Assembly (NCBI GenBank): GCA_021323995.1
Contig: JAJPJY010000066.1
Coordinates: forward strand, 10,458 to 74,457
Length of the DNA stretch: 64,000 nt
Direction: 5' to 3'
Source: a bacterium
GTDB lineage: Archaea > Thermoproteota > Bathyarchaeia > 40CM-2-53-6
The stretch's first letter is position 1. Every line of letters begins with the position of its first letter. The notes beneath the pieces were generated by a model, which worked only from the letters and a program-made list of their open reading frames with translations, searched no databases and was not told where the DNA came from. Position numbers and translations under genes: made by a program. Positions 15,324 to 51,092 of the stretch are shown here, piece after piece.

Positions 15324-17866
<2,543 letters not shown>

Positions 17867-22672: not shown

Positions 22673-22767
22673 GGGGCGGTGGTCCAGACCACCATAGTGG
22701 GGACAGCTTGGTCTAAGATACCTGGCTCGGGCCCAGGTGATCGTGGGTTCAAATCCCACCCGCCCCA
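22673..22767 (+). tRNA. tRNA-Pro (anticodon CGG) with a putative 19-nt non-canonical intron in the D-arm (between positions 13 and 14)
   Basis: Acceptor ggggcgg/ccgcccc with discriminator A. Anticodon arm cctgg-ctCGGgc-ccagg (U33, G37). 5-nt variable loop. T-arm gtggg-ttcaaat-cccac. Removing 22686..22704 gives a 76-nt cloverleaf with D-loop agcttggtcta. CCA not encoded. Confidence 0.6.
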
Positions 22768-26495: not shown

Positions 26496-26852
26496 GAGCG
26501 TGAATGATCAACAGAGGTCTACACTCTTAATTCCTTCTCCACTCCAACAGCATCGTCCCGATCCAAATGTTGTTGTGACACGATAGGACGACGGTGGATC
26601 CATAAAATTTGAAGCGTGAGCGATAGGCCCATACCCCTTCCTTTCCTCTGGAAACCTTACATTCGTTGCGTCCGCAGAGTCCTAACGATTTTCGTATAGT
26701 AAATTATCGGTTGCTGTGTATAGGACAGGCTAAATGAGGAATAATCGCTAAGGACCATCAGGAGTATTTCATACAAAGAACAGATCCAACCCCACTCCAA
26801 CCATCACGAGACCGCATAGGAAACGCAGGGGTGGGCGGGATGGTTTTAGTGG

Positions 26853-26897
26853 GTCCAGTCGAAATGGTTGTACGAGAACCCTTAATTCCACTGGAAC
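26853..26897. promoter_or_regulatory. Inverted pair of ORB-like origin recognition boxes 40 bp upstream of orc1/cdc6
   Basis: Plus-strand gtccagtCgaaatgg (26853..26867). Minus-strand gttccagtggaattaagggttctc (revcomp of 26874..26897). Compare the canonical box at 48424. Confidence 0.45.
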
Positions 26898-26936
26898 TAT
26901 GATTCGAGAAATATTCTCTCTGAGGATTGTCTCGGC

Positions 26937-28181
26937 GTGTCACAGCAAGGTTTGGATCTTATCTTCGAACAAGTACTGTCTGGCGGTCAGATCTTCAGGG
27001 ACAGAAATCTTCTCAGACACGACTACATGCCGGCGAGCCTTCCTCACCGTGAGGAACAGATCAAAAGGCTTGGATCCGTCCTAGCACCGGCTCTTTCCAA
27101 AGAGCGGGTGTCCAACCTTTTCGCTTATGGAAAGACTGGAACTGGCAAGACGATTGTTGCCAAGTTTGTCCTGGACAGGTTGCAGAAGAAGGCGAGGGAC
27201 TATGGCAGGGCTGTTGATACGAGCTATGTGAACTGTCGGCTTGCTGGGACGAACTATCGAGTTATCGCTGATCTCTGTCGCGGCCTTGGCCAGGACGTGC
27301 CGTTTACTGGATTGGCGGTAGGAGAGTTGTTTGATCGGCTGCGGGAGGCTCTGCAGTCGCGCGGTTCCGCATTCCTTGTTGTCTTAGACGAGATTGACGC
27401 CTTGGTCAAGAGGAGTGAGGATGATAGTCTTCTCTACGAACTTACTCGGATTAACGAGAGACTGGATGGAGGGTGGATAGGCGTGATCGGGATTTCAAAT
27501 GATCTTCATTTCAAGGATTTCCTGGATCCTCGCGTCCTGAGTTCTTTGGGAGAGGAGGAGCTAGTCTTCAAACCGTACACATCTGATGAGTTGTACGACA
27601 TTTTGAAGGGTCGCGCGGAGCAGGCTTTCCAGCCAGATGTATTAAATGATGGCGCGCTACGCCTCTGTGCTGCCTTAGCGGCTGGAGAGCATGGCGATGC
27701 GAGGAGAGCCCTGGATCTTCTAAGAGTCGCGGGCGAGATAGGCGAACGGTCGAGAGAGAAGAATGTTCTAGAGTGTCACGTACGTATGGCGCAGCAGAAA
27801 GTGGAACACGACAGAGTGACGGAGGTCCTGTCCTCTCTGCCTCTTCATTCTAGAATTCTCCTTATCTCTGTGATGAATTTGGAGAGTTCTCGGAAGGAGA
27901 GTTCTGTAACGGGTGATGTGTACGAGGTCTATCGGGAGTTGTGCGGGGCTGCCGCGATCGAATCATTGACACAGAGGAGGATCAGCGGTCTCTTGAACGA
28001 GCTGGACATTATGGGTATCATCAACGCACGAGTCGTGAGTTTTGGGCGGTATGGTCGGACGAAAAAGATTCGTCTCGGGGTTGAGCCTCGCGTTGTGAGC
28101 TCGGCTTTTGGAACCGATGAGCTTGTGAAGGGGCTACTGGGGCATATGCCGCGTGGTCTTACAGGTCAGCACGTTCACTAG
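26937..28181 (+). CDS. cdc6: Orc1/Cdc6 replication initiator
   Basis: GTG start. DYMPASLPHREEQIKRLGSVL...FAYGKTGTGKT Walker A, AAA+ core and C-terminal winged helix. Confidence 0.9.
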   Translation: MSQQGLDLIFEQVLSGGQIFRDRNLLRHDYMPASLPHREEQIKRLGSVLAPALSKERVSNLFAYGKTGTGKTIVAKFVLDRLQKKARDYGRAVDTSYVNCRLAGTNYRVIADLCRGLGQDVPFTGLAVGELFDRLREALQSRGSAFLVVLDEIDALVKRSEDDSLLYELTRINERLDGGWIGVIGISNDLHFKDFLDPRVLSSLGEEELVFKPYTSDELYDILKGRAEQAFQPDVLNDGALRLCAALAAGEHGDARRALDLLRVAGEIGERSREKNVLECHVRMAQQKVEHDRVTEVLSSLPLHSRILLISVMNLESSRKESSVTGDVYEVYRELCGAAAIESLTQRRISGLLNELDIMGIINARVVSFGRYGRTKKIRLGVEPRVVSSAFGTDELVKGLLGHMPRGLTGQHVH

Positions 28182-28740
28182 TTGCATTGGAATCGAGGAC
28201 GGGCCTTTCCTTCCGAGAAGACTGGGCGGGACCAGAGCACCGTTAGTGGCAGTCAAGCTCGAGGGTCCCCATATGACCCGGGCTAGGGCCGGCTGGATCA
28301 TTGTGGATGGCATGGACGGGACCGAGCGGGCTTTGGAGTTGTTGTCCTCCCGATCTATGATGCGCTATCCAATTCTCCTGGGAGGAGTGACATTTGGCGG
28401 TTTCAACCTAATTGATCCTCGACGGCTTCAGAAGAGGTTCAAGACCCCGACAATAGTCGTGGTAGGGTTTAGGCCGAATAACAGGGCTGTGAAACATGCC
28501 CTCGTAAAGCACTTTCCGGACTGGAGGAAGAGATGGGGAGTGATACGCTCGCTCGGCCCGTTACGGACCGTCCGGACTATGGCGAGCGAGAATCCCATCT
28601 TCTATGAAGCGTTTGGCTGTTCGAGTAGTGTTGCCAGGAAGATCCTGACCAGTTGGGCGTTGGTGTCGAGGGTTCCTGAGCCGTTGAGGGTGGCAGGGCT
28701 GGTTGCTAGAGGATTGTTTCCGGCACAACCTCTCGGCTGA
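28153..28740 (+). CDS. DUF99 / UPF0215 family protein (endonuclease V-like fold)
   Basis: CIGIEDGPF...IIVDGMDGTE...GGVTFGGFNLID matches the DUF99 pattern. Start overlaps the cdc6 3' end, so exact start is uncertain. Confidence 0.55.
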   Translation: MVLQVSTFTSCIGIEDGPFLPRRLGGTRAPLVAVKLEGPHMTRARAGWIIVDGMDGTERALELLSSRSMMRYPILLGGVTFGGFNLIDPRRLQKRFKTPTIVVVGFRPNNRAVKHALVKHFPDWRKRWGVIRSLGPLRTVRTMASENPIFYEAFGCSSSVARKILTSWALVSRVPEPLRVAGLVARGLFPAQPLG

Positions 28741-29374: not shown

Positions 29375-30493
29375 TCATCCGTGACAGTTATGGCAGAGCG
29401 GAGTCTTGTTGATGACTCCCTTAGTGGTTACGCATTCGGTGCAAAGATGTTTTCTGCAAGAGTTGCAGAGACGCATATGTTCTTCGCATACGACCGCTCC
29501 ACAGTCTTCGCAGACGGCTCTCGTTGGGCTCTCGCAGAGAGTACATTTCCGGGTCTCATCCCAGATCATCTTCCCCGTGGCGCCCTGCAGGATCTTCCGG
29601 TAGGCCCTGTTTCCAGCCTGAAGCTCAACCGTAACTATTGGAATGTGAAGAAGTCGAATGCTGGAAATAGTGACATCATCAGGATGAGCGTTCGACTCTT
29701 GCAGTAGGATATTCGCTACCTTGGCTCTGATCGATTCCTCGCCGGCAGAAGCGGGTGCTACGGTTACACTGTTCTTCATCTGCAGCTCCTGAGGAAGCTT
29801 AGGCATCGAACCGATCGAGGGCTCGATCTCTAAACAGTCGAGGAATAATCCAGAACCAGGTAGATTCTTTAATTGGCCTTCGAAAAGTCCAGCATCGCAC
29901 TCCCGACCGTCCACTCCATCGAAAACGATTATGCCGCGCGCGATTTTCTTCTTGCTCTGCGCAAGAGCGAAGTCGGCAAAGTAGTAGGGGCGGAACTCGA
30001 GCTTCGGCATAGAAGCAAGACGGAGTGCCTTTCCATTCTCAAGACCATGCGCAAGAATCTGAGAGGCAACCGCCCGGGAGACTGGTAGGGTCCCGGGGAC
30101 CCTGTCCCGTTCAGGAGGCTTGATCTTCTCGACGCGTTCCTTGAGTCTAGCGATGTCCCACAGCTCTACTCCATACTTTCTCGCCATGAACTCGGCGTCT
30201 CCCGTGAAACCTTTAGGTGAGACATAGATTCCACTTGGCAGCCCGCCATTCTTCAGTCTCATAGCGAAGCCTTCTACCTCGCGACCGTTCACTTGACGGT
30301 CGCCTTCCCAGCATTCAAAAGCGATTTTCTGGGTTTTTTTCCCCGATTTCTTTGAAGCGACTATGTCGACAACACGAGAATTCGACTGGTCCGCCTGAAC
30401 GTTTTTCTCTACATCGAATCCTTCGATGCGACAGACGTCGCAGACCATGTCGACTACAAAATTGTTAGAGTCTCGACTGGTCTGAGCGGCCAT
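29375..30493 (-). CDS. Restriction-endonuclease-like (Mrr-cat-type PD-(D/E)xK) protein with C-terminal cluster of four CxxC zinc ribbons
   Basis: N-terminus VVDIVASKK...IAFECWEG...GIYVSPKGFT resembles an Mrr catalytic core. C-terminus CTLCESP..CEDCGAVVCEEH..CNSCRKHLCTECV..CHNCHG. Confidence 0.5.
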   Translation of the reverse strand: MAAQTSRDSNNFVVDMVCDVCRIEGFDVEKNVQADQSNSRVVDIVASKKSGKKTQKIAFECWEGDRQVNGREVEGFAMRLKNGGLPSGIYVSPKGFTGDAEFMARKYGVELWDIARLKERVEKIKPPERDRVPGTLPVSRAVASQILAHGLENGKALRLASMPKLEFRPYYFADFALAQSKKKIARGIIVFDGVDGRECDAGLFEGQLKNLPGSGLFLDCLEIEPSIGSMPKLPQELQMKNSVTVAPASAGEESIRAKVANILLQESNAHPDDVTISSIRLLHIPIVTVELQAGNRAYRKILQGATGKMIWDETRKCTLCESPTRAVCEDCGAVVCEEHMRLCNSCRKHLCTECVTTKGVINKTPLCHNCHG

Positions 30494-30673: not shown

Positions 30674-31156
30674 TTGACTCGATCCGACACTTGGCAAGAA
30701 GGAACCCGACAATCTGTGAAGGACATTCTCGGAGACCCGATCATATCGAAGCTTCTCAGTCGAAGCGGCCTGACTAAGGCTCAGTTCGAAACGCTATTAA
30801 TTGACCAGTTAGGAGATGATATGGCGAACAAAAGACTAACACGCGAAGAAATGGCACAGATCATGCGCAAACAAGGAGGAATCAGCCGCGGATCAATGAA
30901 CAGGACCCTTAGGCAGGCGAGGAAGAATACGTCGGAAGCCATTCACACCATACTACTATTAGGGTATGGAGGACTGTTCGACAGCCCTAGCCTGGCCCCC
31001 TTCGTCGAGGCTTCCGAACAGTTGAAGAGCCAGACCGAAAGATTACTAGCCCCCGGAGAGGAAGATGAGAATACGTACCGAGCGAACATTGAGACTCTTC
31101 TCCAAAATCTTGAGGACGCCTTCAACGCGCTCTACGGAAAAACACGTGACACGTGA
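30674..31156 (+). CDS. HTH DNA-binding protein
   Basis: LTREEMAQIMRKQGGISRGSMNRTLRQARKN helix-turn-helix. Start may be at an internal Met. Confidence 0.45.
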   Translation: MTRSDTWQEGTRQSVKDILGDPIISKLLSRSGLTKAQFETLLIDQLGDDMANKRLTREEMAQIMRKQGGISRGSMNRTLRQARKNTSEAIHTILLLGYGGLFDSPSLAPFVEASEQLKSQTERLLAPGEEDENTYRANIETLLQNLEDAFNALYGKTRDT

Positions 31157-31412
31157 TATGTGATGTCACGTCCCTCTCGTTCAACGTCACATTGTATCAC
31201 GTCACGATAAGGCCACTGATCCCTCTTCTGAATACTAATCTGTGCGTGATCCTTGAGATTATGTCACCCGCTTGACGTCAAGCCGCAACTAGTCTGTCAC
31301 GCGGTTATCACCCGTGACAGCCAAATCACAGGTCACGCAGCTCTGTGACAGTTAGTCTTAAATGCCGACAGGTTGCGTGTGACGTCACGCTCTAGGTGCG
31401 TGATGTCACACT
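31140..31412. promoter_or_regulatory. Dense array of GTCAC/GTGAC half-sites arranged as palindromes, including perfect GTGACGTCAC and TGACGTCA
   Basis: At least 10 half-sites in about 270 bp: cacgtgacacgtga, ctgtcac-N12-gtgacag, gtcac-N8-gtgac, gtgacgtcac (31379..31388). Confidence 0.5.
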
Positions 31413-32094
31413 TTTGCTTGGTTTCAAGTTGTCCCGTGGACAGGAAGAATCTGTTGGGGATTCTGGGAATCGTGATATTGCCAGGCTATTCTTCGACTCA
31501 TTCTCAAAGCGCCTGGAAGGTGTAGAAACTGAAGTGCGACGGATGGAGTCAGAGTTTGAGAAGCTAAAGCTGTCGACCGACACGAATCAGATCTCTGACT
31601 TGGTTCTCCTCGAGAGGCTGCAAAAGTCGGAAGCCTTCATCAGAGAATCTCTAAGCTCCCTTAAGGTTGCGGTGGAGAAAGCTCTCGACACTGATCGGAC
31701 GGGGTCCAATCCAAGTGCCGACGGATTCCAGAATGGGAAGGTAAGGAGAATCGAGCCGGTCGCCCCAAGGGAATTGGGAATTGTGTCGCGTGTGCTGTCT
31801 CCGACTGGTGAAATTGGTTCTCTTCCATTAATAACCACTCCTACAGAGCTGCAAGTGTTGACATTGCTCGTTGCTGAGGGCCCCAAGTCGGCGCCAGAAA
31901 TTGGTCAAGCAGTGGGGCGTTCCCGTGAGCATACTGCTCGGCTGATGAAGAAGTTGTACGAGGAGGGTTACATCCGGCGGGACCAGACTCGTATTCCTTT
32001 CAGGTATTCGGTCGTAGATAGGATCAAGCAGGCTGCGAAGAAGCCTGGGGCTATGGACGAAGAGAAAGAACCGATTTCGGTTCCTCAACCCTGA
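31396..32094 (+). CDS. MarR/TrmB-like regulator with C-terminal wHTH (start likely downstream of 31396)
   Basis: C-terminus ELQVLTLLVAEGPKSAPEIGQAVGRSREHTARLMKKLYEEGYIRR. Confidence 0.5.
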   Translation: MRDVTLLLGFKLSRGQEESVGDSGNRDIARLFFDSFSKRLEGVETEVRRMESEFEKLKLSTDTNQISDLVLLERLQKSEAFIRESLSSLKVAVEKALDTDRTGSNPSADGFQNGKVRRIEPVAPRELGIVSRVLSPTGEIGSLPLITTPTELQVLTLLVAEGPKSAPEIGQAVGRSREHTARLMKKLYEEGYIRRDQTRIPFRYSVVDRIKQAAKKPGAMDEEKEPISVPQP

Positions 32095-32461
32095 CCGCGT
32101 AACTGACCGCACGTCCGTTCGCTGTTCTGTCGAGGATTCCTCGGTCAGCCAGCCTTGTAAGATACGTCGACACAGTGCTTATCGGAATCTTTTCGGAGAA
32201 CGAGGTCTCAAAGGCTTTCTTTGCCTCGAGTGCGGTGAAGCTTTTGTCTTTCAAAGTGGAAATTATTGTACTAGCAAGCCTGTCAAACTTGTGGGGAGAC
32301 ACGCTAAGGGCCGAGGCGGTACCGCGAGGAGTCCCTGCCATTATCTCCACTAGGTCTAGGAGCTTGCCAACCTTCTCGCGAGTAATCTGGCCGTCAACAG
32401 TGATGGAATGTCTCACCCCTTGGTCATCGTAGAATTCGAGTTTGAAACGGCGAGGCTTCAC
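32051..32461 (-). CDS. wHTH DNA-binding protein
   Basis: C-terminus ISTVSTYLTRLADRGILDRTANGRAVSYAV winged helix. Confidence 0.45.
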   Translation of the reverse strand: MKPRRFKLEFYDDQGVRHSITVDGQITREKVGKLLDLVEIMAGTPRGTASALSVSPHKFDRLASTIISTLKDKSFTALEAKKAFETSFSEKIPISTVSTYLTRLADRGILDRTANGRAVSYAVRVEEPKSVLSLRP

Positions 32462-32480: not shown

Positions 32481-32509
32481 GAGTTTCACACTTCACCGTT
32501 CACATGTAG
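32481..32509 (+). repeat. Candidate attL (left copy of imperfect direct repeat)
   Basis: gagtttcacacttcaccgttcacatgtag. The 18-nt core 32492..32509 matches 48335..48352 at 17/18. Triple TTCAC unit in both copies. Confidence 0.5.
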
Positions 32510-32692
32510 AAAAGAGCTTCCCTTATGCGAGTAACCATCGCAGTGAAAGCAGTCTGGTCAGATCGTCGTCATTTTCCAGTTCTTCCAGTGGAAAACCATG
32601 GCTGTACCCCATCGTTCCAATACCTGAATGCCCGGCTGTTGGTAACACAACACCCGCCCGTCCGGACTTCGTGGTTTTCGTGGAGAACAAGC

Positions 32693-33919
32693 ATGGAGAG
32701 AGATATCTCCGCGAAAGGTTGGGTCAACCAGGCTACAGAAGCGGCTACTCAGACTATCCGTATCCGCGTACTCCGAGTATGGGCTACTGCCAACGGTTGG
32801 CTCAAGATAGACCACCCTTCGAGTGCCGATATCTACATGGCGGCAGAAGAAGGGGTCGATGAGATCAATTCGAACGCTGTAAGTCTCTACGACGCCGCGA
32901 ATCGGATGCTGTCCTCGATGATGAAACGGGGATTAGGAGCATCCAACTCTGCCAGCTACTACCGGGGCAGACTAGCCGAGTTCATGAAATGGGCAAAGCT
33001 CGGTGTGGACGACACAGATTGGGACGTGTCGGTCAAGAAGATACACCGTATCGTCAGGGACGCTGGAAACCTCGACGCCAAGGGCGTAAAGTCGATGATC
33101 ATCGGGGCACGCTCCAAAAAGGGCAAGGCCCTAGTCAGCTTCGTCGCGAATACTGGCTGTCGTCCGAGCGAGGCCCTCCTTACCAAGATTTCTGATCTTG
33201 ACTTGACAAAGACACCAGCGCGTGTCCACTTCAGGGCAGAGATCACCAAGACCAGACGAGATCGATACTCGTTTCTCAGCACAGAGTGTATGAGCTTGTT
33301 GAAGGATTATTGGGGCGACAGAAAGACCGGCTACATCTTCGAGGGTCAGAAAGAGGGAACTCCAACCGACAAGTCGTCCGCTTGGGAGATGCTTCATCGG
33401 ATCATCGAAGAAGCGGGTCTGCTGGGAGAGAAGGGCGAGACTGGCACTTTCGAGATCAAACCGTACACTTTCCGAGCTTTTGCCGAGGGGGTCATGACGA
33501 CCTGTGGTATGCCGGAGAAATGGATCGACTGGTTGGTCGGGCACGGTTCAGGGGTCAAGGAACACTACCGACAGAGCGGAGTGTTCGACCGAGACATCGC
33601 CCCGGCTTGGCAAACAAAATGTAACTCAGCTTTCTGCTTCATGGCTGACACAGCTGAGACAGTCCTGAGTCTCAAGGAAGAATTAACGGAGCTGAAGAAG
33701 GGGATCGAAGTGGACAGGCAGATCATCGAGGAACAGTTTCTCAAACCGGGTATGAACGCCCCGAATCTTGGGGTCAGCACGCCACGTCCGAAGTTTGAGA
33801 CTAAGAAGATCGACAGCTCGAACGAAGAGTCTCTGGAGAAAGCTGTGGCAGAGGGATACGAACCAGTGCCAGGACTGGCGGTCAACGGGCACATCTTCCT
33901 CCGGAGAAAAGTCGCATAG
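32693..33919 (+). CDS. int: Tyrosine recombinase / integrase (start uncertain; ORF open from 32525, alternative ATG at 32837)
   Basis: TGCRPSEAL (box I Arg), KPYTFRAF, WLVGHGSGVKEHY (H..R...Y catalytic tail). Confidence 0.8.
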   Translation: MERDISAKGWVNQATEAATQTIRIRVLRVWATANGWLKIDHPSSADIYMAAEEGVDEINSNAVSLYDAANRMLSSMMKRGLGASNSASYYRGRLAEFMKWAKLGVDDTDWDVSVKKIHRIVRDAGNLDAKGVKSMIIGARSKKGKALVSFVANTGCRPSEALLTKISDLDLTKTPARVHFRAEITKTRRDRYSFLSTECMSLLKDYWGDRKTGYIFEGQKEGTPTDKSSAWEMLHRIIEEAGLLGEKGETGTFEIKPYTFRAFAEGVMTTCGMPEKWIDWLVGHGSGVKEHYRQSGVFDRDIAPAWQTKCNSAFCFMADTAETVLSLKEELTELKKGIEVDRQIIEEQFLKPGMNAPNLGVSTPRPKFETKKIDSSNEESLEKAVAEGYEPVPGLAVNGHIFLRRKVA

Positions 33920-33980
33920 AGGGTTCCTGATTTCTTGACAACTTGTCTTAGCGGAGCGTTCGAATAAGGGAGGTGATCTT

Positions 33981-34382
33981 ATGCAAAGGAAAATCGGACT
34001 AGTCGTTAGTGCGATCATCGTAGTGGCCGCGATCGGAGGAGTCTTCGGCTCTGGAATGCTGAGCCACGCACCACAGACGACTACAACTACCACGCCCAAC
34101 GTGTGCTTACATTGCTACAGTCTATCGCTGGTCAACACAACTTTCCTGAGCAACTCTACAGCGAGACTTTTCTTGAACGCCACAGCCCACCCGTTAACAG
34201 TCTACTCTTGGGAGCTTTACAACAGCACGGGCCTAGTCAGCTACGGCAACGTCAGCATCAGCATCCAACACAACGAAGTCGGTGCTGTCTCAGTATACCC
34301 AATATCCGCACCCGGCGCATACACCGTTGAAGTAACAACCACAGATCAGACCGTGTGGGCGTACACTGTCCATCGGTTGTAG
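33981..34382 (+). CDS. Secreted or membrane-anchored sequon-rich small protein
   Basis: N-terminal TM LVVSAIIVVAAIGGVFG, then a T-rich region with several NxT/S sequons. Confidence 0.4.
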   Translation: MQRKIGLVVSAIIVVAAIGGVFGSGMLSHAPQTTTTTTPNVCLHCYSLSLVNTTFLSNSTARLFLNATAHPLTVYSWELYNSTGLVSYGNVSISIQHNEVGAVSVYPISAPGAYTVEVTTTDQTVWAYTVHRL

Positions 34383-34391
34383 CCGCCTTTC

Positions 34392-34589
34392 TTAGGCTAC
34401 GACTTCTTTCTTTGGCATCGGCCAACCTCGCTGTTCGATGATCCGCTTCGCTTCTTCTGCTATCTCTGGAGTCGCGGCTCGGAGGCCTTTCTGTCCGCAC
34501 TTGCTACACTCAACAAAAGTTATTGGTTCCTTGAAGTCGAAGGTGCCGACAAAGTGGCAGTTGGGGCATTCGATCTTTTCTTGTGACAT
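34392..34589 (-). CDS. Zn-ribbon small protein
   Basis: CPNCHF...CSKCG. Confidence 0.4.
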   Translation of the reverse strand: MSQEKIECPNCHFVGTFDFKEPITFVECSKCGQKGLRAATPEIAEEAKRIIEQRGWPMPKKEVVA

Positions 34590-34591
34590 GG

Positions 34592-35587
34592 TTAGAACTT
34601 CTCGAAAGTGATCGTCGCTGTGTAGTCGAAACGACTGAACTTGTTTTGGAATCCGGCAGATGTCCCTACGCTAGTCGGGAAGTAAACGTCTGTCTTGCCT
34701 AGCCTGTTCTGTGTCGCAACGAAGCTGGTTGTAATGTCCACTTGTGAGTAACCCTGAGCCGCTCCCGGAGGGCTAATAGCTTGGAAAGCGTTGCCTTGGC
34801 CTAGACTGTCCCACACAGTAAGGATGTTTCCGTTTCCGTATCCGGTTGCTCCTGCACTGTTCAGAGCAAGCTGTGGGTAGAGGTTGTAGTGTATGTCGGG
34901 TTGATTTCCAGTCCACTTGACGCCATCTGAGCTGGTCGCTCCCGGTTCGTGCGATGGGTTCTGGTTCGCCCCGGATGTAACGATTGTAACGTCTGTACTT
35001 CCCGCAGACTGTGTGGAGAGAGCTATCCAGAAATACTGACCGGGTACGATTGGAGTCTGCGATAAGTCGAACTCTGCTGTGGTTGTTGTGGCATCGCCCA
35101 CAGGTTTCGACGTGGGCAGTTGTCCGAATGGAATCGCGACGCTTGGGCCTTTTCTCTGTGGCTCTGCAGGTATTCCGACTTTGGCGGCTCCGAGGATGGC
35201 TCCTCCTAGCGCATACAATCCCGAGATACCGGATAGAACCCAGAGATTTGATGGAACTGGCCCGGAAGAAGCTGTGGTTGTGTCGGTGTAGATTGTGGCG
35301 AAGAGTGTAGAACCGGCGTTGTAGTTAGTGTCGCTTAGGTAAGCTTCAAAGTCGAATCTCAGCCGTCCGACCGACTGTGTTGAGAAAATGAAGCGCTGTG
35401 CATAGTAGCTGGTGTCATCAACATCGGCCGACCCACCAGTCCCCGTACTTCCTATGGAGTTGTTGACATCCCACCCGTCCAGAGAATTGAGGGAGTTCTG
35501 CTTTCCAGTCTGCAGAGCGGAGAGAAGCCTTGAGGTAGTCAGGGTGACGTGCTTGATGTGGGAAGTTTCAGCGATTCGGGTTGCCAA
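34592..35587 (-). CDS. Putative virion structural or receptor-binding protein (S/T/G-rich beta protein)
   Basis: 331 aa with low-complexity S/T/G-rich composition and no enzyme motifs. Largest non-enzymatic ORF at this end of the element. Confidence 0.3.
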   Translation of the reverse strand: MATRIAETSHIKHVTLTTSRLLSALQTGKQNSLNSLDGWDVNNSIGSTGTGGSADVDDTSYYAQRFIFSTQSVGRLRFDFEAYLSDTNYNAGSTLFATIYTDTTTASSGPVPSNLWVLSGISGLYALGGAILGAAKVGIPAEPQRKGPSVAIPFGQLPTSKPVGDATTTTAEFDLSQTPIVPGQYFWIALSTQSAGSTDVTIVTSGANQNPSHEPGATSSDGVKWTGNQPDIHYNLYPQLALNSAGATGYGNGNILTVWDSLGQGNAFQAISPPGAAQGYSQVDITTSFVATQNRLGKTDVYFPTSVGTSAGFQNKFSRFDYTATITFEKF

Positions 35588-35882
35588 GTTTTTCTAATGT
35601 CTCCGACAGATACTTCTCGGTCTCAGCGAATACATAGTAGTCGTCTTGTACAAGCGCGAGTATCCACAGCTTTGCGAAATCGTCTTTGTCGAAAGCCCCG
35701 TCTTGTTCCGGTCGCCCAAGGACACAAACGAAATCGCTAGGGAAATACTGCCAGTAAACCCATAGCTCTGGATGGGCATCGGAGGGCATCAATCCTTGTC
35801 CTTCAGCTCTTTCAGTAGCTCGGGGCAGAGTAGGTGCATCTCGTCCTTGATGATGTACTTGCCGTGCGGGTCGCCCCAACAT
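35568..35882 (-). CDS. Hypothetical protein (element)
   Basis: ORF; start probably at an internal Met. Confidence 0.25.
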   Translation of the reverse strand: MLGRPARQVHHQGRDAPTLPRATERAEGQGLMPSDAHPELWVYWQYFPSDFVCVLGRPEQDGAFDKDDFAKLWILALVQDDYYVFAETEKYLSETLEKLGNPNR

Positions 35883-36007
35883 CCCTGACGTACGAGAGGC
35901 ATTACATCAAGAGCAAAGTAGAACCCTGCCGCGTCCGAGACACGCTCGAAGTACGACCTAGTCCAACGGCGAAGATCAGCGCGAGCTTCTTTCTCCTCAG
36001 TGTCCAA
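35789..36007 (-). CDS. Hypothetical protein (element)
   Basis: ATG ORF of 72 aa. Confidence 0.3.
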   Translation of the reverse strand: MDTEEKEARADLRRWTRSYFERVSDAAGFYFALDVMPLVRQGCWGDPHGKYIIKDEMHLLCPELLKELKDKD

Positions 36008-36350
36008 GTCTCAGATGCCCCACAGTGAAGTGAAGAACAGAAAGTAGAAGGCTAGTAACCCGGCGATGCCCACAGCCAACAAGAAGCGATTATGAAGTTC
36101 CAAAGCTACAACCCCGCTCTTCTAAGAGTACGTTGGTAGCGTTTCTTCCAGTCGAGGCAGACGGTCAGGACGACCTCCACCGGAGGAAGACGCCAAGACT
36201 GTATGTACCTACTCTGTGCTTTCTTGTCCAAGTTCAGATATTTCCTGTACGGTTTAGTTGGAGGCCCCGCCGCTTGATGCAGAGAAAGTTGGTGTACCAA
36301 AATCTGCCTCGCCCAGCGGCGGAGCAACCCTACCCTCCCCAGAGCAGGGC

Positions 36351-36563
36351 TCAGGAATTGGGCGAGCTTGCTTGGTATACCTTGACGATATACCCATTAA
36401 TCTCAAGAAAGCCAAAACCCCGAGCTTTGAGCTGTCGCTGAAACTCCGGGTCGTGCAATATCTCATCGGGCAGTTTGATTCGCTCCGGGAGACCTTGGCG
36501 TGGTTGGTTGACCATGATTGTACTACCTATATCCCCATACTCGCTGGGCTTGGAACCGGGCAT
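36351..36563 (-). CDS. Hypothetical protein (element)
   Basis: ATG ORF of 70 aa. Confidence 0.3.
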   Translation of the reverse strand: MPGSKPSEYGDIGSTIMVNQPRQGLPERIKLPDEILHDPEFQRQLKARGFGFLEINGYIVKVYQASSPNS

Positions 36564-36845
36564 ATCTGGAGTAGCCGAGGTAGGGATATACCCACGTTAA
36601 TTTGAGGATCGGCCGGACGCGGAGTTGAAGGTAACAGAAGTCCTACGGTAAGGGCCCATACCCTCGAGCCGTTTGACGCCATACACCCGTACGTTTCCTA
36701 TAGAACGCCTTGGCTACGCTTCGGCTACTCGTAGATGTATACCCACAATATGCTAGCACAGTGCGCACGTGAGACAAGACAACACAAGACAGACAGGGCT
36801 CGTGGTAACAGTTGTATGTGCTGTATGTACATCGCGATACGTATC

Positions 36846-37088
36846 CTACTTCTGTTCTTGTTTAGCACGCGCTCGACGCCGCTTCTCAGTATCTAGTCGA
36901 AGTCTCCATCTACGTATGTGCTCTGGATCGTCGCACGCCTTCCTGACGTATAGACGCTGACAGCGTGCACATACCTTCGAAATAGATAGTGGTGACTTCT
37001 TGGGTAGCTCAGCGATGAAGACTTTGGGCTTCGGCTTCTCGTAGGGATAATCGTCAATTGGAAAGCTTCGATGGAATGGGCTGTTCAA
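36846..37088 (-). CDS. Small basic Cys-containing protein
   Basis: CARCQ..C plus an Arg/Lys-rich tail. Confidence 0.3.
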   Translation of the reverse strand: MNSPFHRSFPIDDYPYEKPKPKVFIAELPKKSPLSISKVCARCQRLYVRKACDDPEHIRRWRLRLDTEKRRRARAKQEQK

Positions 37089-37626
37089 TCTTGAACCAGC
37101 AACCTTCGCCTTGGAATACTATGTGGACGCGCTTCAACACGCCGAACTCATCAACCTCTTGGTCGTCAACCAGTGGCTCACCATTCCACAAGGCAGTAGC
37201 CAACGACTGGTAGTCGATTGGTGTCTCTCCGCGCTTGTCAGGCAGATTCGCTTTCTTCATGTCGAGGAGGGTCTTCGTCCAATTCAGCAAAAGCTGGTTC
37301 TCGTCTGAGGTCAGCACGCTCGACTTGCCCTTCTCTGTGAGCGTCTTGATCTGGTCGTAGATTAGCTCAGCCAAAGCTGGGTCGGGCACGCCACTGACAT
37401 CTATCGGATCGGATATACTCGGACTGAAGCTTGTTGAATGCTGTTTGTGTCTAGACACGTTCATGAGGTTCAGGTCTATACCAAGCTGTTGGGCGTAGCT
37501 GACTACATCTGACAGCGTCGAGCCTCCAGCTATCCGCTTGTCAAGCAATTCTCTGATCTCGTCGCTCTGACTACAGATACGGCAGAAGCGATTTGGTTCG
37601 TAGCCTGTCAATGCCTTCTTCTCCAA
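37054..37626 (-). CDS. HTH-containing protein. Candidate regulator or terminase-small-subunit-like.
   Basis: STLSDVVSYAQQLGIDLNLMNVSRHKQ HTH-like segment. 190 aa. Confidence 0.3.
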   Translation of the reverse strand: MEKKALTGYEPNRFCRICSQSDEIRELLDKRIAGGSTLSDVVSYAQQLGIDLNLMNVSRHKQHSTSFSPSISDPIDVSGVPDPALAELIYDQIKTLTEKGKSSVLTSDENQLLLNWTKTLLDMKKANLPDKRGETPIDYQSLATALWNGEPLVDDQEVDEFGVLKRVHIVFQGEGCWFKIEQPIPSKLSN

Positions 37627-37832
37627 GTTCCTCTATCAACGCTTCCATCCAAGTAGACCTCACAGATGTCGGAAACTCTGCACGCTCTTTGATGACACCG
37701 ATTACACGCGAACCATGATGACTTCAAGTCTTGGATTGACTGGTTGTCCACATGGAAATCCGCGATGCTCTCACAGCTTGGACATTTGGCCTCGAATACA
37801 AACTCTCCAAGCCAACGAATGACTTCGATCAA
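37608..37832 (-). CDS. Zn-finger small protein
   Basis: CPSCES...CNRCHQRAC. Confidence 0.35.
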   Translation of the reverse strand: MIEVIRWLGEFVFEAKCPSCESIADFHVDNQSIQDLKSSWFACNRCHQRACRVSDICEVYLDGSVDRGTWRRRH

Positions 37833-38098
37833 GTAAACATCTTCTCGACTAACTCGAATGCATCTTTGGCGTCGGAGAAATACTGTTTCGTAATCGGGTG
37901 ATTGACTCCACGAATCGGGATTGAGTGCACGAGCTTGTCGATGCTCGTGTAGAGATTGTGCACGGCTACTTGTTGTTCGTTTGTGTTCATTCCCAATCGA
38001 TCTCTGGTTCGGCGTGTACTCTTACGACTGGCTTTGGTTTCGGTCGATGTAAGCTGGCTTCTTGGACGAAGTCGTAGTTCGGTAGCAAGTATCGCCAC
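37829..38098 (-). CDS. Hypothetical protein (element)
   Basis: ATG ORF of 89 aa, 4-nt overlap with neighbour. Confidence 0.3.
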   Translation of the reverse strand: MAILATELRLRPRSQLTSTETKASRKSTRRTRDRLGMNTNEQQVAVHNLYTSIDKLVHSIPIRGVNHPITKQYFSDAKDAFELVEKMFT

Positions 38099-38129
38099 AA
38101 GACCTGTTCAGGGTTTGCTAAGACTACGT

Positions 38130-38489
38130 TCATCGATGTGTTGTCTGACGTTGATGAGTATGCGATTTAACCTGGTAATGCACAAGCACAGGTTTCTTGC
38201 CAAGCGCGTACTTGTCTCTCTGTTCCTCAGCACACGCTGGACACATCTTCGATCCAAGGAGGCTGTCAGACGGGGAGTAACGAAGGCCGCACTCAGGGCA
38301 CTTGACTGGAAACTCAGGCTTCGGCTCGGAGTGCGAACCGAGATACTCCCATTTTCTCGAGCCAAAGTTTCGATCCAGATCACGATCCATCTTTAAGCAC
38401 TCGAACGTTGTCTGCCTCGGCTTGTCTGTTGTAATCGCTCGGCAGAGCCCGCTTGTAATCTCGGGGTTTGAGGTAGATTTGACCACCAA
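38130..38489 (-). CDS. Zn-ribbon protein
   Basis: CPECGLRYSP...CPACAEE. Confidence 0.4.
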   Translation of the reverse strand: MVVKSTSNPEITSGLCRAITTDKPRQTTFECLKMDRDLDRNFGSRKWEYLGSHSEPKPEFPVKCPECGLRYSPSDSLLGSKMCPACAEEQRDKYALGKKPVLVHYQVKSHTHQRQTTHR

Positions 38490-38566
38490 TATGTACTTCT
38501 TCGAGTCTACGTTCGTTGTCCATGATTCGAGAAGCGTGCGACTTTCGATGTCCCAAAATTACCAAC

Positions 38567-38833
38567 TCAGTTTGAGGTCAAGACGAGTTCGTAAGACGCG
38601 CTACCTCGTTGAGTAACCGTAAACGTCCATGCCGCGAAGGTTGCTCCAGCAGAAGACTTTGCTATCGCCATGATCGTGGTTCCCGCGCTCTGCAGACTCC
38701 CACAGGTTATGGTGACGCCTGCTTCCTTCGTTGGATATTTGACGAACAGGTCTTTGAGATTTGGATTGTTGGCACTCGATCCGACCGAGCCCGTTTCTCT
38801 CCAAATGCCCTCAATTACTACAGGTGTAGTCAT
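38567..38833 (-). CDS. Small beta-rich protein. Possible minor structural protein.
   Basis: 88 aa, S/T/G/A-rich. Confidence 0.3.
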   Translation of the reverse strand: MTTPVVIEGIWRETGSVGSSANNPNLKDLFVKYPTKEAGVTITCGSLQSAGTTIMAIAKSSAGATFAAWTFTVTQRGSASYELVLTSN

Positions 38834-38998
38834 GTCGTTTCACTTGTTATTACAAACGGCTCGTTTTCCTGCACTCGCACGAGCCCGAGCGAGTGGAATG
38901 TTGGTGCTGGATGACAGAACAGCACGAAGCAAGTATGAAAGTGCTGGCTTATTTATTCAGGAGTCCAGCTTCCTGACTGATTGGTGCGCGGATCAGTT

Positions 38999-39232
38999 CT
39001 AGTCAGTCGTGCCGCCGAATACAAACTTGTATCGTCTTCCGAAGATCGCGATACCTTCTGTTCTTGCAAACTGAAACTCGATCTTCCATCGGACGAACGT
39101 GACTCCGAACAGATTCCAGATGTGTTGGTAAGTGTTGCAAGCAGATGTCTCTACTTCGTCCGTCATGAAGTCGAGAGCTGTAATCTTGCCGACATCAACA
39201 GCCAAGTTCAGATATGGTATACGAGCGTACAA
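38999..39232 (-). CDS. Hypothetical protein (element)
   Basis: 77 aa ORF immediately downstream of the protease-like gene. Confidence 0.25.
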   Translation of the reverse strand: MYARIPYLNLAVDVGKITALDFMTDEVETSACNTYQHIWNLFGVTFVRWKIEFQFARTEGIAIFGRRYKFVFGGTTD

Positions 39233-39237
39233 GCGTT

Positions 39238-48299: not shown

Positions 48300-48320
48300 A
48301 CTCGGTGTCTTTTCGGCACC

Positions 48321-48352
48321 GAGACCCTTCACCTTTCACCCTTCACATGTAG
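48321..48352 (+). repeat. Candidate attR (right copy of imperfect direct repeat)
   Basis: gagacccttcacctttcacccttcacatgtag. The 18-nt core ttcacccttcacatgtag matches 32492..32509 at 17/18. Confidence 0.5.
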
Positions 48353-48420
48353 TTCTGTGATACACCCCTCTGCTTCCTCTGGAGCCTGTGGAAGTGTGCT
48401 GAAACAAAGGGCTGAAATGC

Positions 48421-48447
48421 GTGTTTCCAGTGGAAACAGAGGGGTTC
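48421..48447 (+). promoter_or_regulatory. Canonical archaeal origin recognition box (ORB) with G-string
   Basis: gtgTTTCCAGTGGAAACagaGGGGttc matches the ORB dyad TCCAGTGGAAAC plus downstream G-rich element. Confidence 0.55.
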
Positions 48448-48488
48448 TAGGGCTTGTTCACTGGTAGTGAAGCCGATCTTGCCCTTGT

Positions 48489-51092
48489 CTACGAAGATGG
48501 AGGCTGGCCGCTTCCGCCAGCTGTTTGGGGGGTCTTAGGCAGGTCCGTTTGAGGCGCTATTGCCTGGGGCGGAGCTGAGAGCAATGCCTTCTCTCTTTTT
48601 CTCTGCGCACGCCGACGGAACAACCGGTAAGTCTCGATTACAGGTGTGAGAATGAGCGGGACCAGGAGGAGGTACGAGTAGGGTTGTAGGTCATTGAAAG
48701 TGGTAGTGAATTGAACCCATGGACTGCTGAGTGAGTCGAATTGCGCAGGGTTCGTGTTTATTGTGTAAGTGATCATGGTACCGTTGGGGGCTGTCCACTG
48801 GAAAGCTACTGATGACGGGGACAGTACGTATACTCCGCTGCTACCGGTCGTTACAGTGTAGCTCATAGTGAGACTGTTGCCCGGTGCCAGTATCGGGGAT
48901 TGTGCGGTCTGAGGGCCTGAAGGCGAGACGACTAGGGTCTGCAGGTACTGTGATGTTGCTTGAGGGTCCGTCGCTGCCACGTTTCTTACGGTGACATTGT
49001 CTAGGTTCTGAACAGTCACAAGTACTGCATGTGTTGTGCCGACCGGCCCTGATGTTGGAGTGATCGCCTTCTGGATTACGACATCAGGGGCGAATGGGTA
49101 GTTGAACCTGGCTACGAAATCTTGCTGAGAGCTTGAAGTTACATTGAGGTAGTAAGTTGAGGTGGCGTTGTTGTAGAACGGGTTCGGGAAAAGCGAGCTG
49201 TACAGGATTGTCCCAGGCTGAAAGCTCATGCTGATGATAGATGCGTTTGCTCCCGGGTCCCCGACAATATTGTTCTGGAATCCGAGAAGAGATTTGAGGT
49301 CAAGCTGATGGGTTCCACCCTTGTAATATTGACGCGGATACTGAATGTGCAGATAGAAACTGAGACCGGTTATTTGTATCCCGTTAATGTTGAGAGGTAC
49401 GAGGCCCAAGGCGGCAAAGTAGCTCATGTTCTGAATGTCTGCAGTGTTGATGAGGCTAGAGAAGCTCTGGCCTGGGAGTAGACTAAGCAGTCTTGTCAGA
49501 GCGTCATCGTTTGAGAGTTCTGGGTTCGGCGCGTAGATAGTTGCAGTTCCTCCCTGTCCCATCGGGAGAGAGAATATTGTAGTGAAGGGGAGGCCGAGTG
49601 CCTGGGAAAACTGAGCCTCAATGGCGCTCGACTGAGAGCTCGGGGAAATTGTGCTCCCGTTGAAGAATGTGACGAGAGCTGGTTGGGAGATAATCTGCAA
49701 AAACTGGCCTGGCCCCTGGCCTTGTCCCTGTTGTCCGTTTCCAAAAGGCTGCGAGTCGTTGTTGTTGATGATGAACGCGGCTACATTCGCACCAGCATAG
49801 TTGTTGTCGATGACCAGGCCTTGGCTTGAGAGATCGAGATTCGTCATCTCAAGAGACGCGTTCGGAGCGCCGAGCATGTTGAGGCCGATGGCGAGCTGTT
49901 GTTCGTACTTTCCCGACGGAGGGGCTTGAAAGATCAGATGCGATGTTGACGCTGATGGAATTGCAAAGAGAGGGAGAAGCATCAGTAGGACCACCGCGGT
50001 TTTCAGAGTGGGTTGGTTGAGAATCTTATGATCAGTTGTCATCGCTGGTTTTCTCCGGAGGGCTAGGAAGACATACTTGGCGGCATCAACGCCGCCTTGC
50101 CAAGCAAGGCAGGCTGCACGCCCCGAGATTGTGACTATTGCAAAGACCAGTCCAGCGTTCCGGGCCAGTGTCAGCGCGACATTCTCAAGAAAGGCCGGGC
50201 TTGTAGGTGAGGAGGCTTGAAGAAAGAGTGGAAGAAGGTCACTCGCAACTGGTCCCGTAGCCGCACTGATGAGCGAAAAACCTGCTGGAGGTAGAGGAAT
50301 TCCCGGTAAGCCGCCGGACGAGACTTTTTGGAAGATGGTTAGCGCGGCGAGCCCCATTGCTCCAAGTGCTGAGAGGAAGACTGCCAATCCTACCATGAAT
50401 CCTCGTCCAACTTTTCCTCCCGCGATGATTCCCCCCAGAAGCCCTACCGTGACCCACAACGAGAAGATTGGCGGATAGGTCAGAGGGTTGGTGAAGATCA
50501 AGTAGACCGCCACGATCAGAGTAGTGAAATGGACCCCGAGGACCGGTGAGAGCCAGTCGCTGACACTTCTCAACCCTATCGGCAATTGGGTGTAGCCGAT
50601 GTAGAGGACGAGAAGGTATGCTAATCCCCATCCGATGTAGCGGCCTAGAAAGAGTCCTTCGCTAGGATGCGGTAAAAGATAGATCGTTCGCGGATCATCG
50701 GGTCTCCGCCTGACCAGTATGGTTCCTACTTTCATGTAGAGAAGAATGTAGAGAACACCGGGCATCACTCCGGCTAGAACGAAGCCAAGGATGGCTGCTG
50801 AGAGACTAGAGCCTCGCGCCTTCTCATACTGTCTTGACGCGATCTCTTCTCTAATCCGAGATCCTTTGCCGGCGACTATAATGCACCCGATGGTCAAAAC
50901 AAGGAGTGCGATTGGGAATGGCTGATACGCTAAGAGCCCGGGGACCCAAGTTGGCAGCGTTGCGATGATTACCGTGCTGAATAGGATTCCGAGAGCCCGA
51001 GTGAACGAGCTACATATGAGTGCAACAGTGGCGGCTCTTCGGATCTCCTTGGGCGCATCTTTCAATGCTTGATATGGTACGTACTGAGCCAC
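48489..51092 (-). CDS. Large polytopic membrane protein with sequon-rich extracellular domain and C-terminal TM anchor
   Basis: About 10 N-terminal TM helices, then about 450 aa with many NxS/T sequons, then a C-terminal TM and a basic tail. No WWDYG motif, so not AglB. Confidence 0.45.
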   Translation of the reverse strand: MAQYVPYQALKDAPKEIRRAATVALICSSFTRALGILFSTVIIATLPTWVPGLLAYQPFPIALLVLTIGCIIVAGKGSRIREEIASRQYEKARGSSLSAAILGFVLAGVMPGVLYILLYMKVGTILVRRRPDDPRTIYLLPHPSEGLFLGRYIGWGLAYLLVLYIGYTQLPIGLRSVSDWLSPVLGVHFTTLIVAVYLIFTNPLTYPPIFSLWVTVGLLGGIIAGGKVGRGFMVGLAVFLSALGAMGLAALTIFQKVSSGGLPGIPLPPAGFSLISAATGPVASDLLPLFLQASSPTSPAFLENVALTLARNAGLVFAIVTISGRAACLAWQGGVDAAKYVFLALRRKPAMTTDHKILNQPTLKTAVVLLMLLPLFAIPSASTSHLIFQAPPSGKYEQQLAIGLNMLGAPNASLEMTNLDLSSQGLVIDNNYAGANVAAFIINNNDSQPFGNGQQGQGQGPGQFLQIISQPALVTFFNGSTISPSSQSSAIEAQFSQALGLPFTTIFSLPMGQGGTATIYAPNPELSNDDALTRLLSLLPGQSFSSLINTADIQNMSYFAALGLVPLNINGIQITGLSFYLHIQYPRQYYKGGTHQLDLKSLLGFQNNIVGDPGANASIISMSFQPGTILYSSLFPNPFYNNATSTYYLNVTSSSQQDFVARFNYPFAPDVVIQKAITPTSGPVGTTHAVLVTVQNLDNVTVRNVAATDPQATSQYLQTLVVSPSGPQTAQSPILAPGNSLTMSYTVTTGSSGVYVLSPSSVAFQWTAPNGTMITYTINTNPAQFDSLSSPWVQFTTTFNDLQPYSYLLLVPLILTPVIETYRLFRRRAQRKREKALLSAPPQAIAPQTDLPKTPQTAGGSGQPPSS

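Follow-up and report, generated by a model that had tools for sequence, protein, structure and literature searches.

According to our analysis, the stretch of DNA studied here (64,000 nt of the bathyarchaeal contig JAJPJY010000066.1, hereafter the window) carries a virus-like mobile element of 15.8 kb whose two ends meet host DNA within an origin box (ORB). The explanation that best accounts for the observations as a whole, and to which we assign a probability of about 0.8, is that this element integrated in the dyad of the box, a predicted binding site for the host replication initiator, and that its attP arm mimics the host module to which the box belongs. Lysogeny by means of a tyrosine integrase is a known kind of event, while the ORB target is new in that no archaeal report of it was found: searches of the literature on ORBs with integrases, proviruses, Bathyarchaeia, and viruses with Orc1 yielded no account of an ORB used as an att site, and surveys of Bathyarchaeia viruses mention neither the element type nor the ORB target. 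The window sequence, from a soil member of the Bathyarchaeia, is part of the ENA metagenome contig ERZ27279682 k141_1062683.

An earlier note on this DNA had called attention to a canonical ORB at 48424..48447, and the sequence at this position, TTTCCAGTGGAAACAGAGGGGTTC, is the best PWM match of the window. The mini-ORB that it had quoted at 32581..32597 is also present, as TTCTTCCAGTGGAAAACC at 32580-32597, one base away from the quoted start, and the half-site ahead of it reads TTTCCAGT (32573-32580). The 12-mer TTCCAGTGGAAA occurs exactly at both 32583-32594 and 48425-48436. Matches to the dyad with at most one mismatch number six in the window against 0.36 expected, a count that none of 100 shuffles reached. 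With a PWM built from 67 bathyarchaeal ORBs, the score at 48422(+) is 34.8 bits, the window maximum, compared with 20.4 bits for the highest score in 30 shuffles; the mini-ORB at attL scores 15.1 bits. The box at 48424-48447 combines a TCCAGTGGAAAC-like dyad with a G-string, as an ORB should, and it is of the same sequence type as the boxes upstream of orc1, a motif type found directly upstream of this gene in the window genome and in at least 60 related loci. Of 173 strong matches (>=20 bits) in 1.10 Mb of sequence from related bathyarchaeal loci, 160 (92%) lie upstream of orc1 or of a winged-helix (wHTH) gene, that is, within 900 nt of the former or within 400 nt of the latter, which is not what would be seen if the motif were common at random positions, as the earlier note had considered. 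Given the excess over expectation, the PWM score far above shuffles, and this placement, the motif is not random.

The earlier note had also suggested looking for an empty site in related genomes. Such a site was found in 13 loci from MAGs of related soil Bathyarchaeia, in which wHTH is followed directly by the gene of an 867-aa membrane protein and the whole 15.8 kb is absent. The host features around the element and its two junctions are the following:

32051..32461, minus strand: host winged-helix regulator wHTH, Penicillinase_R-like, 136 aa (Pfam)
32485..32509, plus strand: host block of three TTCAC heptads with CATGTAG, 23 nt upstream of the wHTH start codon, conserved in 13 of 13 empty sites
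32510..32582, plus strand: host spacer of 73 nt, which aligns with the empty sites and is above shuffle level for the closest ones
32583..32594, plus strand: attL core, ORB dyad TTCCAGTGGAAA; end of the host-type sequence, at a junction shared by L084 and L085
48425..48436, plus strand: attR core, ORB dyad TTCCAGTGGAAA; exact 12-nt repeat with host-type sequence directly after it
48437..48471, plus strand: host G-string CAGAGGGGTTC and host palindrome TTCACTGGTAGTGAA (48457-48471), conserved in all empty sites
48489..51092, minus strand: host membrane protein, 867 aa (tblastn synteny)

The intergenic DNA between the wHTH and membrane-protein genes of the relatives (~190-370 nt) has a conserved layout, which runs from the wHTH gene through three TTCAC heptads, a spacer, the ORB, and a TTCAC palindrome to the membrane-protein gene. 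The heptads, ~25-35 nt past the wHTH start codon, read TTCACnnTTC(A/G)CnnTTCACATGTAG and are followed by AAAAG; the spacer is variable in sequence, with a fixed GTGAA within it; the ORB part reads TTTCCAnnnG and then TTCCAGTGGAAAC(A/G)(G/A)AGGGGT; and ~10 nt beyond the ORB stands TTCACnnGTAGTGAAGCC. In L019 the spacer from heptads to dyad is 60 nt long, and in the 12 other empty sites it measures 71-73 nt.

When the window is aligned to these sites, host-type sequence extends from the left through 32594 and starts again at 48437. To the right of the left heptad block all the host landmarks are in place, namely AAAAGAGCTTCCC, GTGAA (32543-32547), and the half-site TTTCCAGT (32573-32580), up to TTCCAGTGGAAA (32583-32594), after which the sequence diverges into ACCATGGCTGTACCCC. 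To the right of the right heptad block there is no host landmark before TTCCAGTGGAAA (48425-48436), and then the host pattern returns with CAGAGGGGTTCTAGGGCTTGTTCACTGGTAGTGAAGCC. In other words, attL follows the host pattern up to GGAAA and attR follows it from CAGAGGGG on, the host G-string CAGAGGGGTTC completing the ORB 48424-48447. With host sequence ending at 32594 and returning at 48437, it follows that the 12-bp ORB dyad is itself the att core and that the insert spans 32595-48436 (15,842 bp with the core counted once); the attL copy is now a mini-ORB because element DNA has replaced its G-string. Identity between the attL spacer and the six closest host spacers is 0.64-0.73 (shuffle maximum 0.60-0.64), the attR spacer is 0.43-0.58 identical to host spacers, which is the shuffle level, and the two spacers of the window are 0.49 identical to each other. 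At the level of sequence comparison, we regard the position of the junctions and the assignment of each block to host or element as demonstrated. Several of the features that define an integrated element were found here, namely a direct repeat at each end, relatives in which the site is unoccupied, and the same site used by independent related elements (L084 and L085).

The earlier note had drawn the boundaries elsewhere. It took the 25-nt repeat at 32485-32509 and 48328-48352 (88% identical; three phased TTCACNN units ending in CATGTAG) as the att core, so that the mini-ORB would be element DNA inside attL and the full ORB would be untouched host DNA 72 nt outside attR. The repeat does bracket the element, flanking identity blocks are the usual signature of att sites, and the near-equal spacing described between repeat and 12-mer is real, with spacers of 73 and 72 nt. 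We nevertheless consider this geometry very improbable: the spacer of the left repeat is of host type and that of the right repeat is not, two other elements join differing host spacers to the same P' arm at the dyad, and the three mismatches between the repeat copies all fall on degenerate heptad positions, as in a binding motif rather than in a crossover core. A reconstruction with the crossover in the dyad scores 76.5-93 against 56.5-63 for that of the earlier note and is the better one for 5 of the 5 closest empty sites. The mini-ORB and the 73 nt before it, which align with the empty sites, are host DNA, the crossover lies in the ORB dyad itself, and 48328-48352 with the following 72 nt is element DNA; the suggestion that the element targeted origin-like DNA is borne out by a junction in an ORB dyad. 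For excision at the dyad, the predicted attP junction string is GCGTGTTTCCAGTGGAAAACCATGG and the predicted attB string is CAGTTCTTCCAGTGGAAACAGAGGGG; under a heptad crossover, TTCACATGTAGAAAAG would be expected joined to the right end of the element.

The possibility that two 12-mers and two heptad blocks coincide by chance has the shortness of the motifs in its favor and nothing further. We judge it negligible, given that 22 of 25 positions match within 1 nt of an equal offset from an exact 12-mer (p ~1e-10 by our own calculation), and that the shuffles, the PWM, the ORB placement, and the occurrence of phased TTCAC pairs, of which the 64 kb contain two (the host block and the element block) and none elsewhere, all oppose it.

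The recognizable features of the element are these:

32595..32692, plus strand: P' arm and integrase upstream region, ACCATGGCTGTACCCCATCGTTCCAATACC...GGTAACACAACACCCG, 90% identical in L084
32693..33919, plus strand: tyrosine integrase, 408 aa (Pfam Phage_integrase PF00589, E 5.9e-13)
39238..41331, minus strand: fusion of prohead protease and major capsid protein, a virus hallmark (Pfam Peptidase_S78; PHROGs major head protein and maturation protease)
46110..47189, plus strand: TIR-domain gene, CAP12/Pycsar-effector-like, cargo (Pfam PF10137, E 9.6e-15)
48099..48299, plus strand: last gene of the element, 66 aa as called (gene calls), followed by a hairpin at 48302-48323
48328..48352, plus strand: element block of three TTCAC heptads with CATGTAG, attP arm, inside DNA absent from all empty sites
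48361..48387, minus strand: complete ORB carried by the element, inverted, AGGCTCCAGAGGAAGCAGAGGGGTGTA (PWM 22.9 bits; highest shuffle score 20.4)

The integrase ORF is intact and starts 98 nt downstream of the attL core. It has the catalytic domain of a tyrosine recombinase, and its closest solved relative is the archaeal XerA 5hxy (E 9.5e-14), with which the R, K, R, H, and Y positions are aligned. A search among 5.8 billion proteins found very few relatives. The integrase of L084 (P0002; 78% identical) adjoins a wHTH gene on a JGI contig whose host spacer is unlike that of the window, and its left junction reads TTTCCAGTTGTTCCAGTGGAAA/ACCATGGCTAAACCCCATCGTTCCAATACC; next to the integrase of L085 (P0003; 73% identical), an L005-like host spacer is joined at TTCCAGTGGGAAA/ACCTGACTGAACCCCATCGTTCCAATACC. 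Both left junctions fall at the same base as that of the window element. The three ORB integrations all come from metagenome contigs, and L083, from an independent sequencing run, has an attL identical to that of the window. The attL of L085 (40-60) reads TTCCAGTGGGAAAACC, with one extra G that may be a core variant belonging to the element itself; it hints at strand exchange within the dyad, on the left side of GGAAA. No right end was recovered for a second ORB-targeting element; the L085 contig ends before attR, and L099 is too short.

Integrases at a greater distance (29-35% identity), together with capsid-bearing relatives of the element, are located at or beside intron-containing tRNA genes, at their 3' ends. 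The tRNA genes that abut these relatives were confirmed with Rfam in L086 (25-137) and L088 (16-123), and read by eye in L094 (about 17000-17400) and L098 (about 5640-5700); the two known from Rfam went undetected by ARAGORN in its bacterial mode. When the capsid relatives (P0009/L094) and the TIR relative (P0016/L098) were examined for an ORB site, they too appeared at tRNA genes. The tRNA-sited relatives have a common P'-arm motif, CCAAT...GGTAACACAAnACCCG, and the window element shares P'-arm motifs with L085 and with the tRNA-targeting relatives. Because the distant relatives sit at tRNA genes, ORB targeting is a derived specificity in an otherwise tRNA-targeting family. The window element itself is not at a tRNA gene, the only one in the window being at 22700, and an RNA gene as its target was discarded, with no match to an Rfam family and no compensatory pairs in 12 orthologous sites. 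The integrase is also not of the SSV (suicidal) type, in which att lies inside the integrase gene and integration splits that gene.

Free or excised forms were sought in several ways. A scan of IMG/VR with the integrase gave no match, and a scan of JGI metagenomes with an integrase alignment gave two distant loci only. In the attP searches, the heptad pattern, the junction 21-mer, and the element-ORB 22-mer had 0 matches, and the three matches to the P'-arm 18-mer were all unrelated coding sequence of bacterial phages. No excised circular attP was present in IMG/VR or in the JGI metagenomes, where sampling is thin, and when wHTH and the last element ORF were looked up by exact match for an empty attB of the same strain, the result was lysogen contigs or nothing.

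The ancestry of the targeted box can be read from the organization of the orc1 loci. The corresponding features of the window are:

26630..26656, minus strand: host oriC ORB, 295 nt upstream of orc1, GGTTTCCAGAGGAAAGGAAGGGGTATG (PWM 30.9 bits)
26873..26899, minus strand: host oriC ORB, 50 nt upstream of orc1, TAGTTCCAGTGGAATTAAGGGTTCTCG (PWM 25.0 bits)
26937..28181, plus strand: orc1/cdc6 initiator gene (Pfam Cdc6_C, Cdc6_lid, AAA domains)

The Orc1 protein is 83-91% identical to those of the closest soil Bathyarchaeia MAGs (grassland soil series, e.g. 13_1_40CM, BA_x). The position of the first box is kept in close relatives and the second box is near-identical in about 15 relatives. According to tblastn of the flanking proteins over 80 orc1 loci, the gene order is orc1, EndoU-like, Mrr, p146, TrmB, wHTH(-). 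In most other Bathyarchaeia, the block p146, TrmB, wHTH(-) stands directly upstream of orc1 with divergent transcription, and the wHTH-orc1 intergenic region of 550-850 bp contains 2-3 ORBs interspersed with TTCAC/GTGAA motifs, the orthologue of the targeted box being one of the boxes within this origin region. A wHTH homologue with >=300 nt of upstream sequence, the region that is the integration target, is present in 53 bathyarchaeal loci, and in 50 of them an ORB in the same orientation is found at a stereotyped distance, which for the majority of soil-clade loci is 123-129 nt from wHTH and for the majority of the others about 190-203 nt; in 44 of these 50, TTCAC follows within about 20 nt. 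The targeted box is therefore the wHTH-proximal ORB of the ancestral oriC. In the soil clade a rearrangement separated it from orc1, and the box is now found, ~5.6 kb downstream from the start of that gene, in an intergenic region of about 185-370 nt. Within the same comparative frame, the conservation and ancestry of the module and the recurrence of the junction appear firmly established. The wHTH protein, encoded next to the TTCAC motifs, is an obvious candidate for binding them.

Could the wHTH-proximal ORB still be a working second origin, at which the element inserts for early replication or to disrupt or hijack initiation? The derivation of the box from oriC and its perfect conservation in the soil-clade relatives (TTCCAGTGGAAAC.GAGGGGT) would agree with such a role. 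However, the box is solitary in the soil clade, not part of a multi-box origin adjacent to orc1; it consists of a single ORB and a half-site, confined by a promoter on one side and by the 3' end of a gene on the other, no AT-rich stretch accompanies it, and the GC-skew profile has no switch at the locus. Present-day origin activity there is doubtful, and a role as an Orc1-dependent promoter element of wHTH, or the status of a relic, is at least as likely; we hold the second-origin explanation to be improbable.

The right end of the element resembles the host module in its architecture. The heptads and the inverted ORB occupy the 125 nt between the last element gene and the core, and the reconstructed attP consists, in order, of the heptads, 8 nt, the ORB on the minus strand, 37 nt, the dyad, the P' arm, and the integrase. 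The element heptads differ from the host block at variable NN positions only, and their distance from the dyad, 72 nt, compares with 71-73 nt in 12 of 13 empty host sites. The inverted ORB, which confirms the suspicion of the earlier note that the element carries a box of its own, is 95% identical over 21 nt to host ORBs of L007, L012, L013, and L065 (BLAST) and resembles the common bathyarchaeal variant CTCCAGTAGAAGCAGAGGGGTG; no host spacer has an inverted ORB. As to the homology of ~120 bp that the same note had proposed between attB and attP, an architecture of ~110 bp is indeed shared, but between the blocks there is an inverted ORB instead of diverged homology. Integration leaves attR with two full ORBs in inverted orientation, 52 bp from centre to centre, and attL with a mini-ORB 98 nt ahead of the integrase gene. 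This attP arm of heptads and ORB is known from one right end, that of the window element.

This resemblance might be a relic, if aberrant excision (specialized transduction) had captured the left flank of an earlier host and the dyad alone were functional. Such an event would put heptads, spacer, and dyad between the right end and P', and the 72-nt spacing would be inherited for free. On the other hand, the element spacer is without the host landmarks AAAAG, mid-spacer GTGAA, and TTTCCA half-site, it contains an inverted ORB that is in no host spacer, and the similarity ends exactly at the left edge of the heptads; the persistence of three perfect TTCAC units while the DNA up to the dyad is randomized suggests selection. 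For these reasons a relic seems unlikely to us.

A somewhat stronger, although still minority, candidate is that the ORB pair and TTCAC motifs of attP are primarily the own origin of the element, fired by host Orc1, with integration as a by-product of the shared dyad. No replication initiator was recognized in the element, inverted ORBs with TTCAC are the exact motif set of bathyarchaeal oriC regions, and the element ORB belongs to a typical bathyarchaeal type. One preprint argues against autonomous replication of a virus from its lack of ORBs (10.1101/2021.04.21.440749). Against an origin as the primary role, the boxes are 52 bp apart compared with about 170 bp in host origins, and the equality of the heptad-to-core distance with that of the host is left without explanation. 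The DNA near the element ORBs (~50% GC) also has no AT-rich unwinding element, a further point against an origin. The ORB pair may still serve as an Orc1-dependent origin of the episome, as the element has no recognizable replication gene.

We favor integration in the ORB dyad with an attP arm that copies the host module, and the mechanism that we propose is as follows. The module upstream of wHTH comprises three TTCAC heptads, a variable spacer of fixed length (~72 nt), a half-ORB with a full ORB, and the TTCAC palindrome. The element, which has its own tyrosine integrase, inserted by site-specific recombination inside the palindromic dyad TTCCAGTGGAAA, so that the dyad ends up at both junctions, its palindrome presumably acting as a pair of core-type integrase sites. 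At attL, host heptads and spacer are kept with the dyad as a mini-ORB, and at attR element DNA, dyad, and host G-string regenerate a full ORB. The attP arm copies the host geometry (three TTCAC 72 nt from the dyad) and adds an inverted complete ORB, and host Orc1 and a TTCAC-binding host factor, possibly wHTH, may occupy equivalent positions on attP and attB. By analogy with the IHF and arm sites of lambda, the heptads and ORB of the arm most likely serve site selection and synapsis, a role favored because the heptad-core distance is equal on both partners and constrained in length in the hosts while the sequence is free. Such a role would account, too, for the use of the wHTH box over the two boxes near orc1, whose dyads are imperfect and which are without heptads.

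Among the ~20 ORFs of the element, the integrase, the capsid fusion, and the TIR protein are the only ones with a match in Pfam or PHROGs. No Orc1, wHTH, or other replication homologue was found in the element with Pfam, PHROGs, and homology searches, no terminase, portal, or tail genes were recognized, and no annotated phage in INPHARED resembles it. Of a tailed-virus (Caudoviricetes-like) gene set the protease-capsid fusion alone is recognized. Because terminase, portal, tail, and replication genes are not recognizable, the element may be satellite-like or a very divergent virus. The TIR gene is at the integrase-distal end in L094 (4047-5093) too, and it heads the same end-of-element gene order in L098 (2961-4073); its homologues are very widespread, with 592 matches at E<=1e-30.

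A review of archaeal tyrosine recombinases gives their targets as tRNA genes, certain protein-coding genes, and intergenic sites; origin boxes are not on its list (PMC8371274). Like the proviruses with tRNA-targeting integrases (PMC8371274), to which kind its distant relatives L086, L088, and L094 belong, the element has an intact integrase at one junction and a duplicated short identity block, the function of its target would be restored at one junction, and it carries a look-alike of the target. It differs from them in that the target is a putative protein-binding DNA site, the ORB dyad, and not an RNA gene, and in that the look-alike is kept at the binding motifs and their spacing only and not as continuous sequence.

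ORB and mini-ORB elements are described in general terms for the oriC of Sulfolobus, Pyrococcus, and Aeropyrum (PMC5333045). The dyad TCCAGTGGAAAC with its downstream G-string is the same here as in those boxes; unlike them, the targeted box stands alone, 5.6 kb downstream from the start of orc1 and with no unwinding element beside it, and one ORB copy is on a mobile element. Sequence details of the archaeal ORBs were reportedly given by Robinson et al. in 2004.

IMEX elements such as CTXphi integrate at dif, a terminus site, by borrowing the XerCD of the host. With them the element shares an att that is a short palindromic chromosome-maintenance site, but it encodes an Xer-like integrase itself and has an initiator site as its target. 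The attP of lambda has arm-type sites in addition to IHF, Xis, and Fis sites, and its arm sites are on attP only. The arrangement proposed here is similar in having accessory protein-binding sites (heptads, inverted ORB) at fixed distances from the core, and differs in that the same motifs at the same spacing are on attB too, as conserved host elements. Robinson and Bell are said to have put forward in 2007 an "extrachromosomal element capture" model for extra archaeal replication origins. As in that model, an integrated element is linked to an ORB locus and an inverted ORB pair is made at attR; unlike in it, the host ORB is older than the element, as the conserved empty sites indicate, and firing of the new attR pair is speculation.

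A bolder idea, which we offer as a tentative one and consider doubtful, is that a virus lineage switched its integrase from tRNA genes to an initiator site, with attP as a small copy of the origin-proximal module of the host (TTCAC heptads and ORBs) and with Orc1 and the TTCAC factor acting as integration factors while also firing replication of the episome. If so, the inverted pair of full ORBs at attR would be a concrete first step toward seeding chromosomal origins. Involvement of Orc1, if true, would link the replication initiator with site-specific recombination and lysogeny, and the element-capture model of origin evolution would gain a testable intermediate. The division of the box into an attL mini-ORB and a rebuilt attR full ORB is a natural perturbation of an ORB, and an integrase with a 12-bp palindromic core that is present in many archaeal origins is a possible genetic tool. 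For Bathyarchaeia, this is the first motif-level description of oriC that we found, including the conserved wHTH gene and the TTCAC motif set.

Some additional observations concern the host locus. The two strong ORBs upstream of orc1 (26630-26899 in the window) share their orientation, on the minus strand, in the soil clade, and the wHTH ORB, 5.7 kb from them, is the only strong host ORB of opposite orientation in the window; this geometry, with same-strand ORBs at orc1 and an opposite one at wHTH, is unusual. The soil subclade of L007, L012, L013, and L065 has an extra inverted ORB pair (7457(-)/7645(+) in L007), ~190 nt apart and 2.4 kb upstream of orc1, which looks closer to a classical origin than the orc1-proximal boxes. 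A copy of the dyad with one mismatch at 48792-48803 (-), inside the ORF of the 867-aa membrane protein, was judged to be chance or coding sequence, being without a G-string, below 10 bits, and within a coding ORF. The p146, TrmB-like, and wHTH block (30716-32461 in the window; around 7200-9200 in L022-L064) is syntenic with oriC across Bathyarchaeia, and between orc1 and this block stand a Mrr-type restriction endonuclease gene (29375-30493), absent in some relatives such as L019, and an EndoU-like gene (28273-28740). Bathyarchaeal orc1 synteny is also seen on two contigs filed under MAGs of Dormiibacterota and Acidoferrum, L004 (DASPWZ010000012.1) and L039 (DATIXS010000275.1), which are probably mis-binned.
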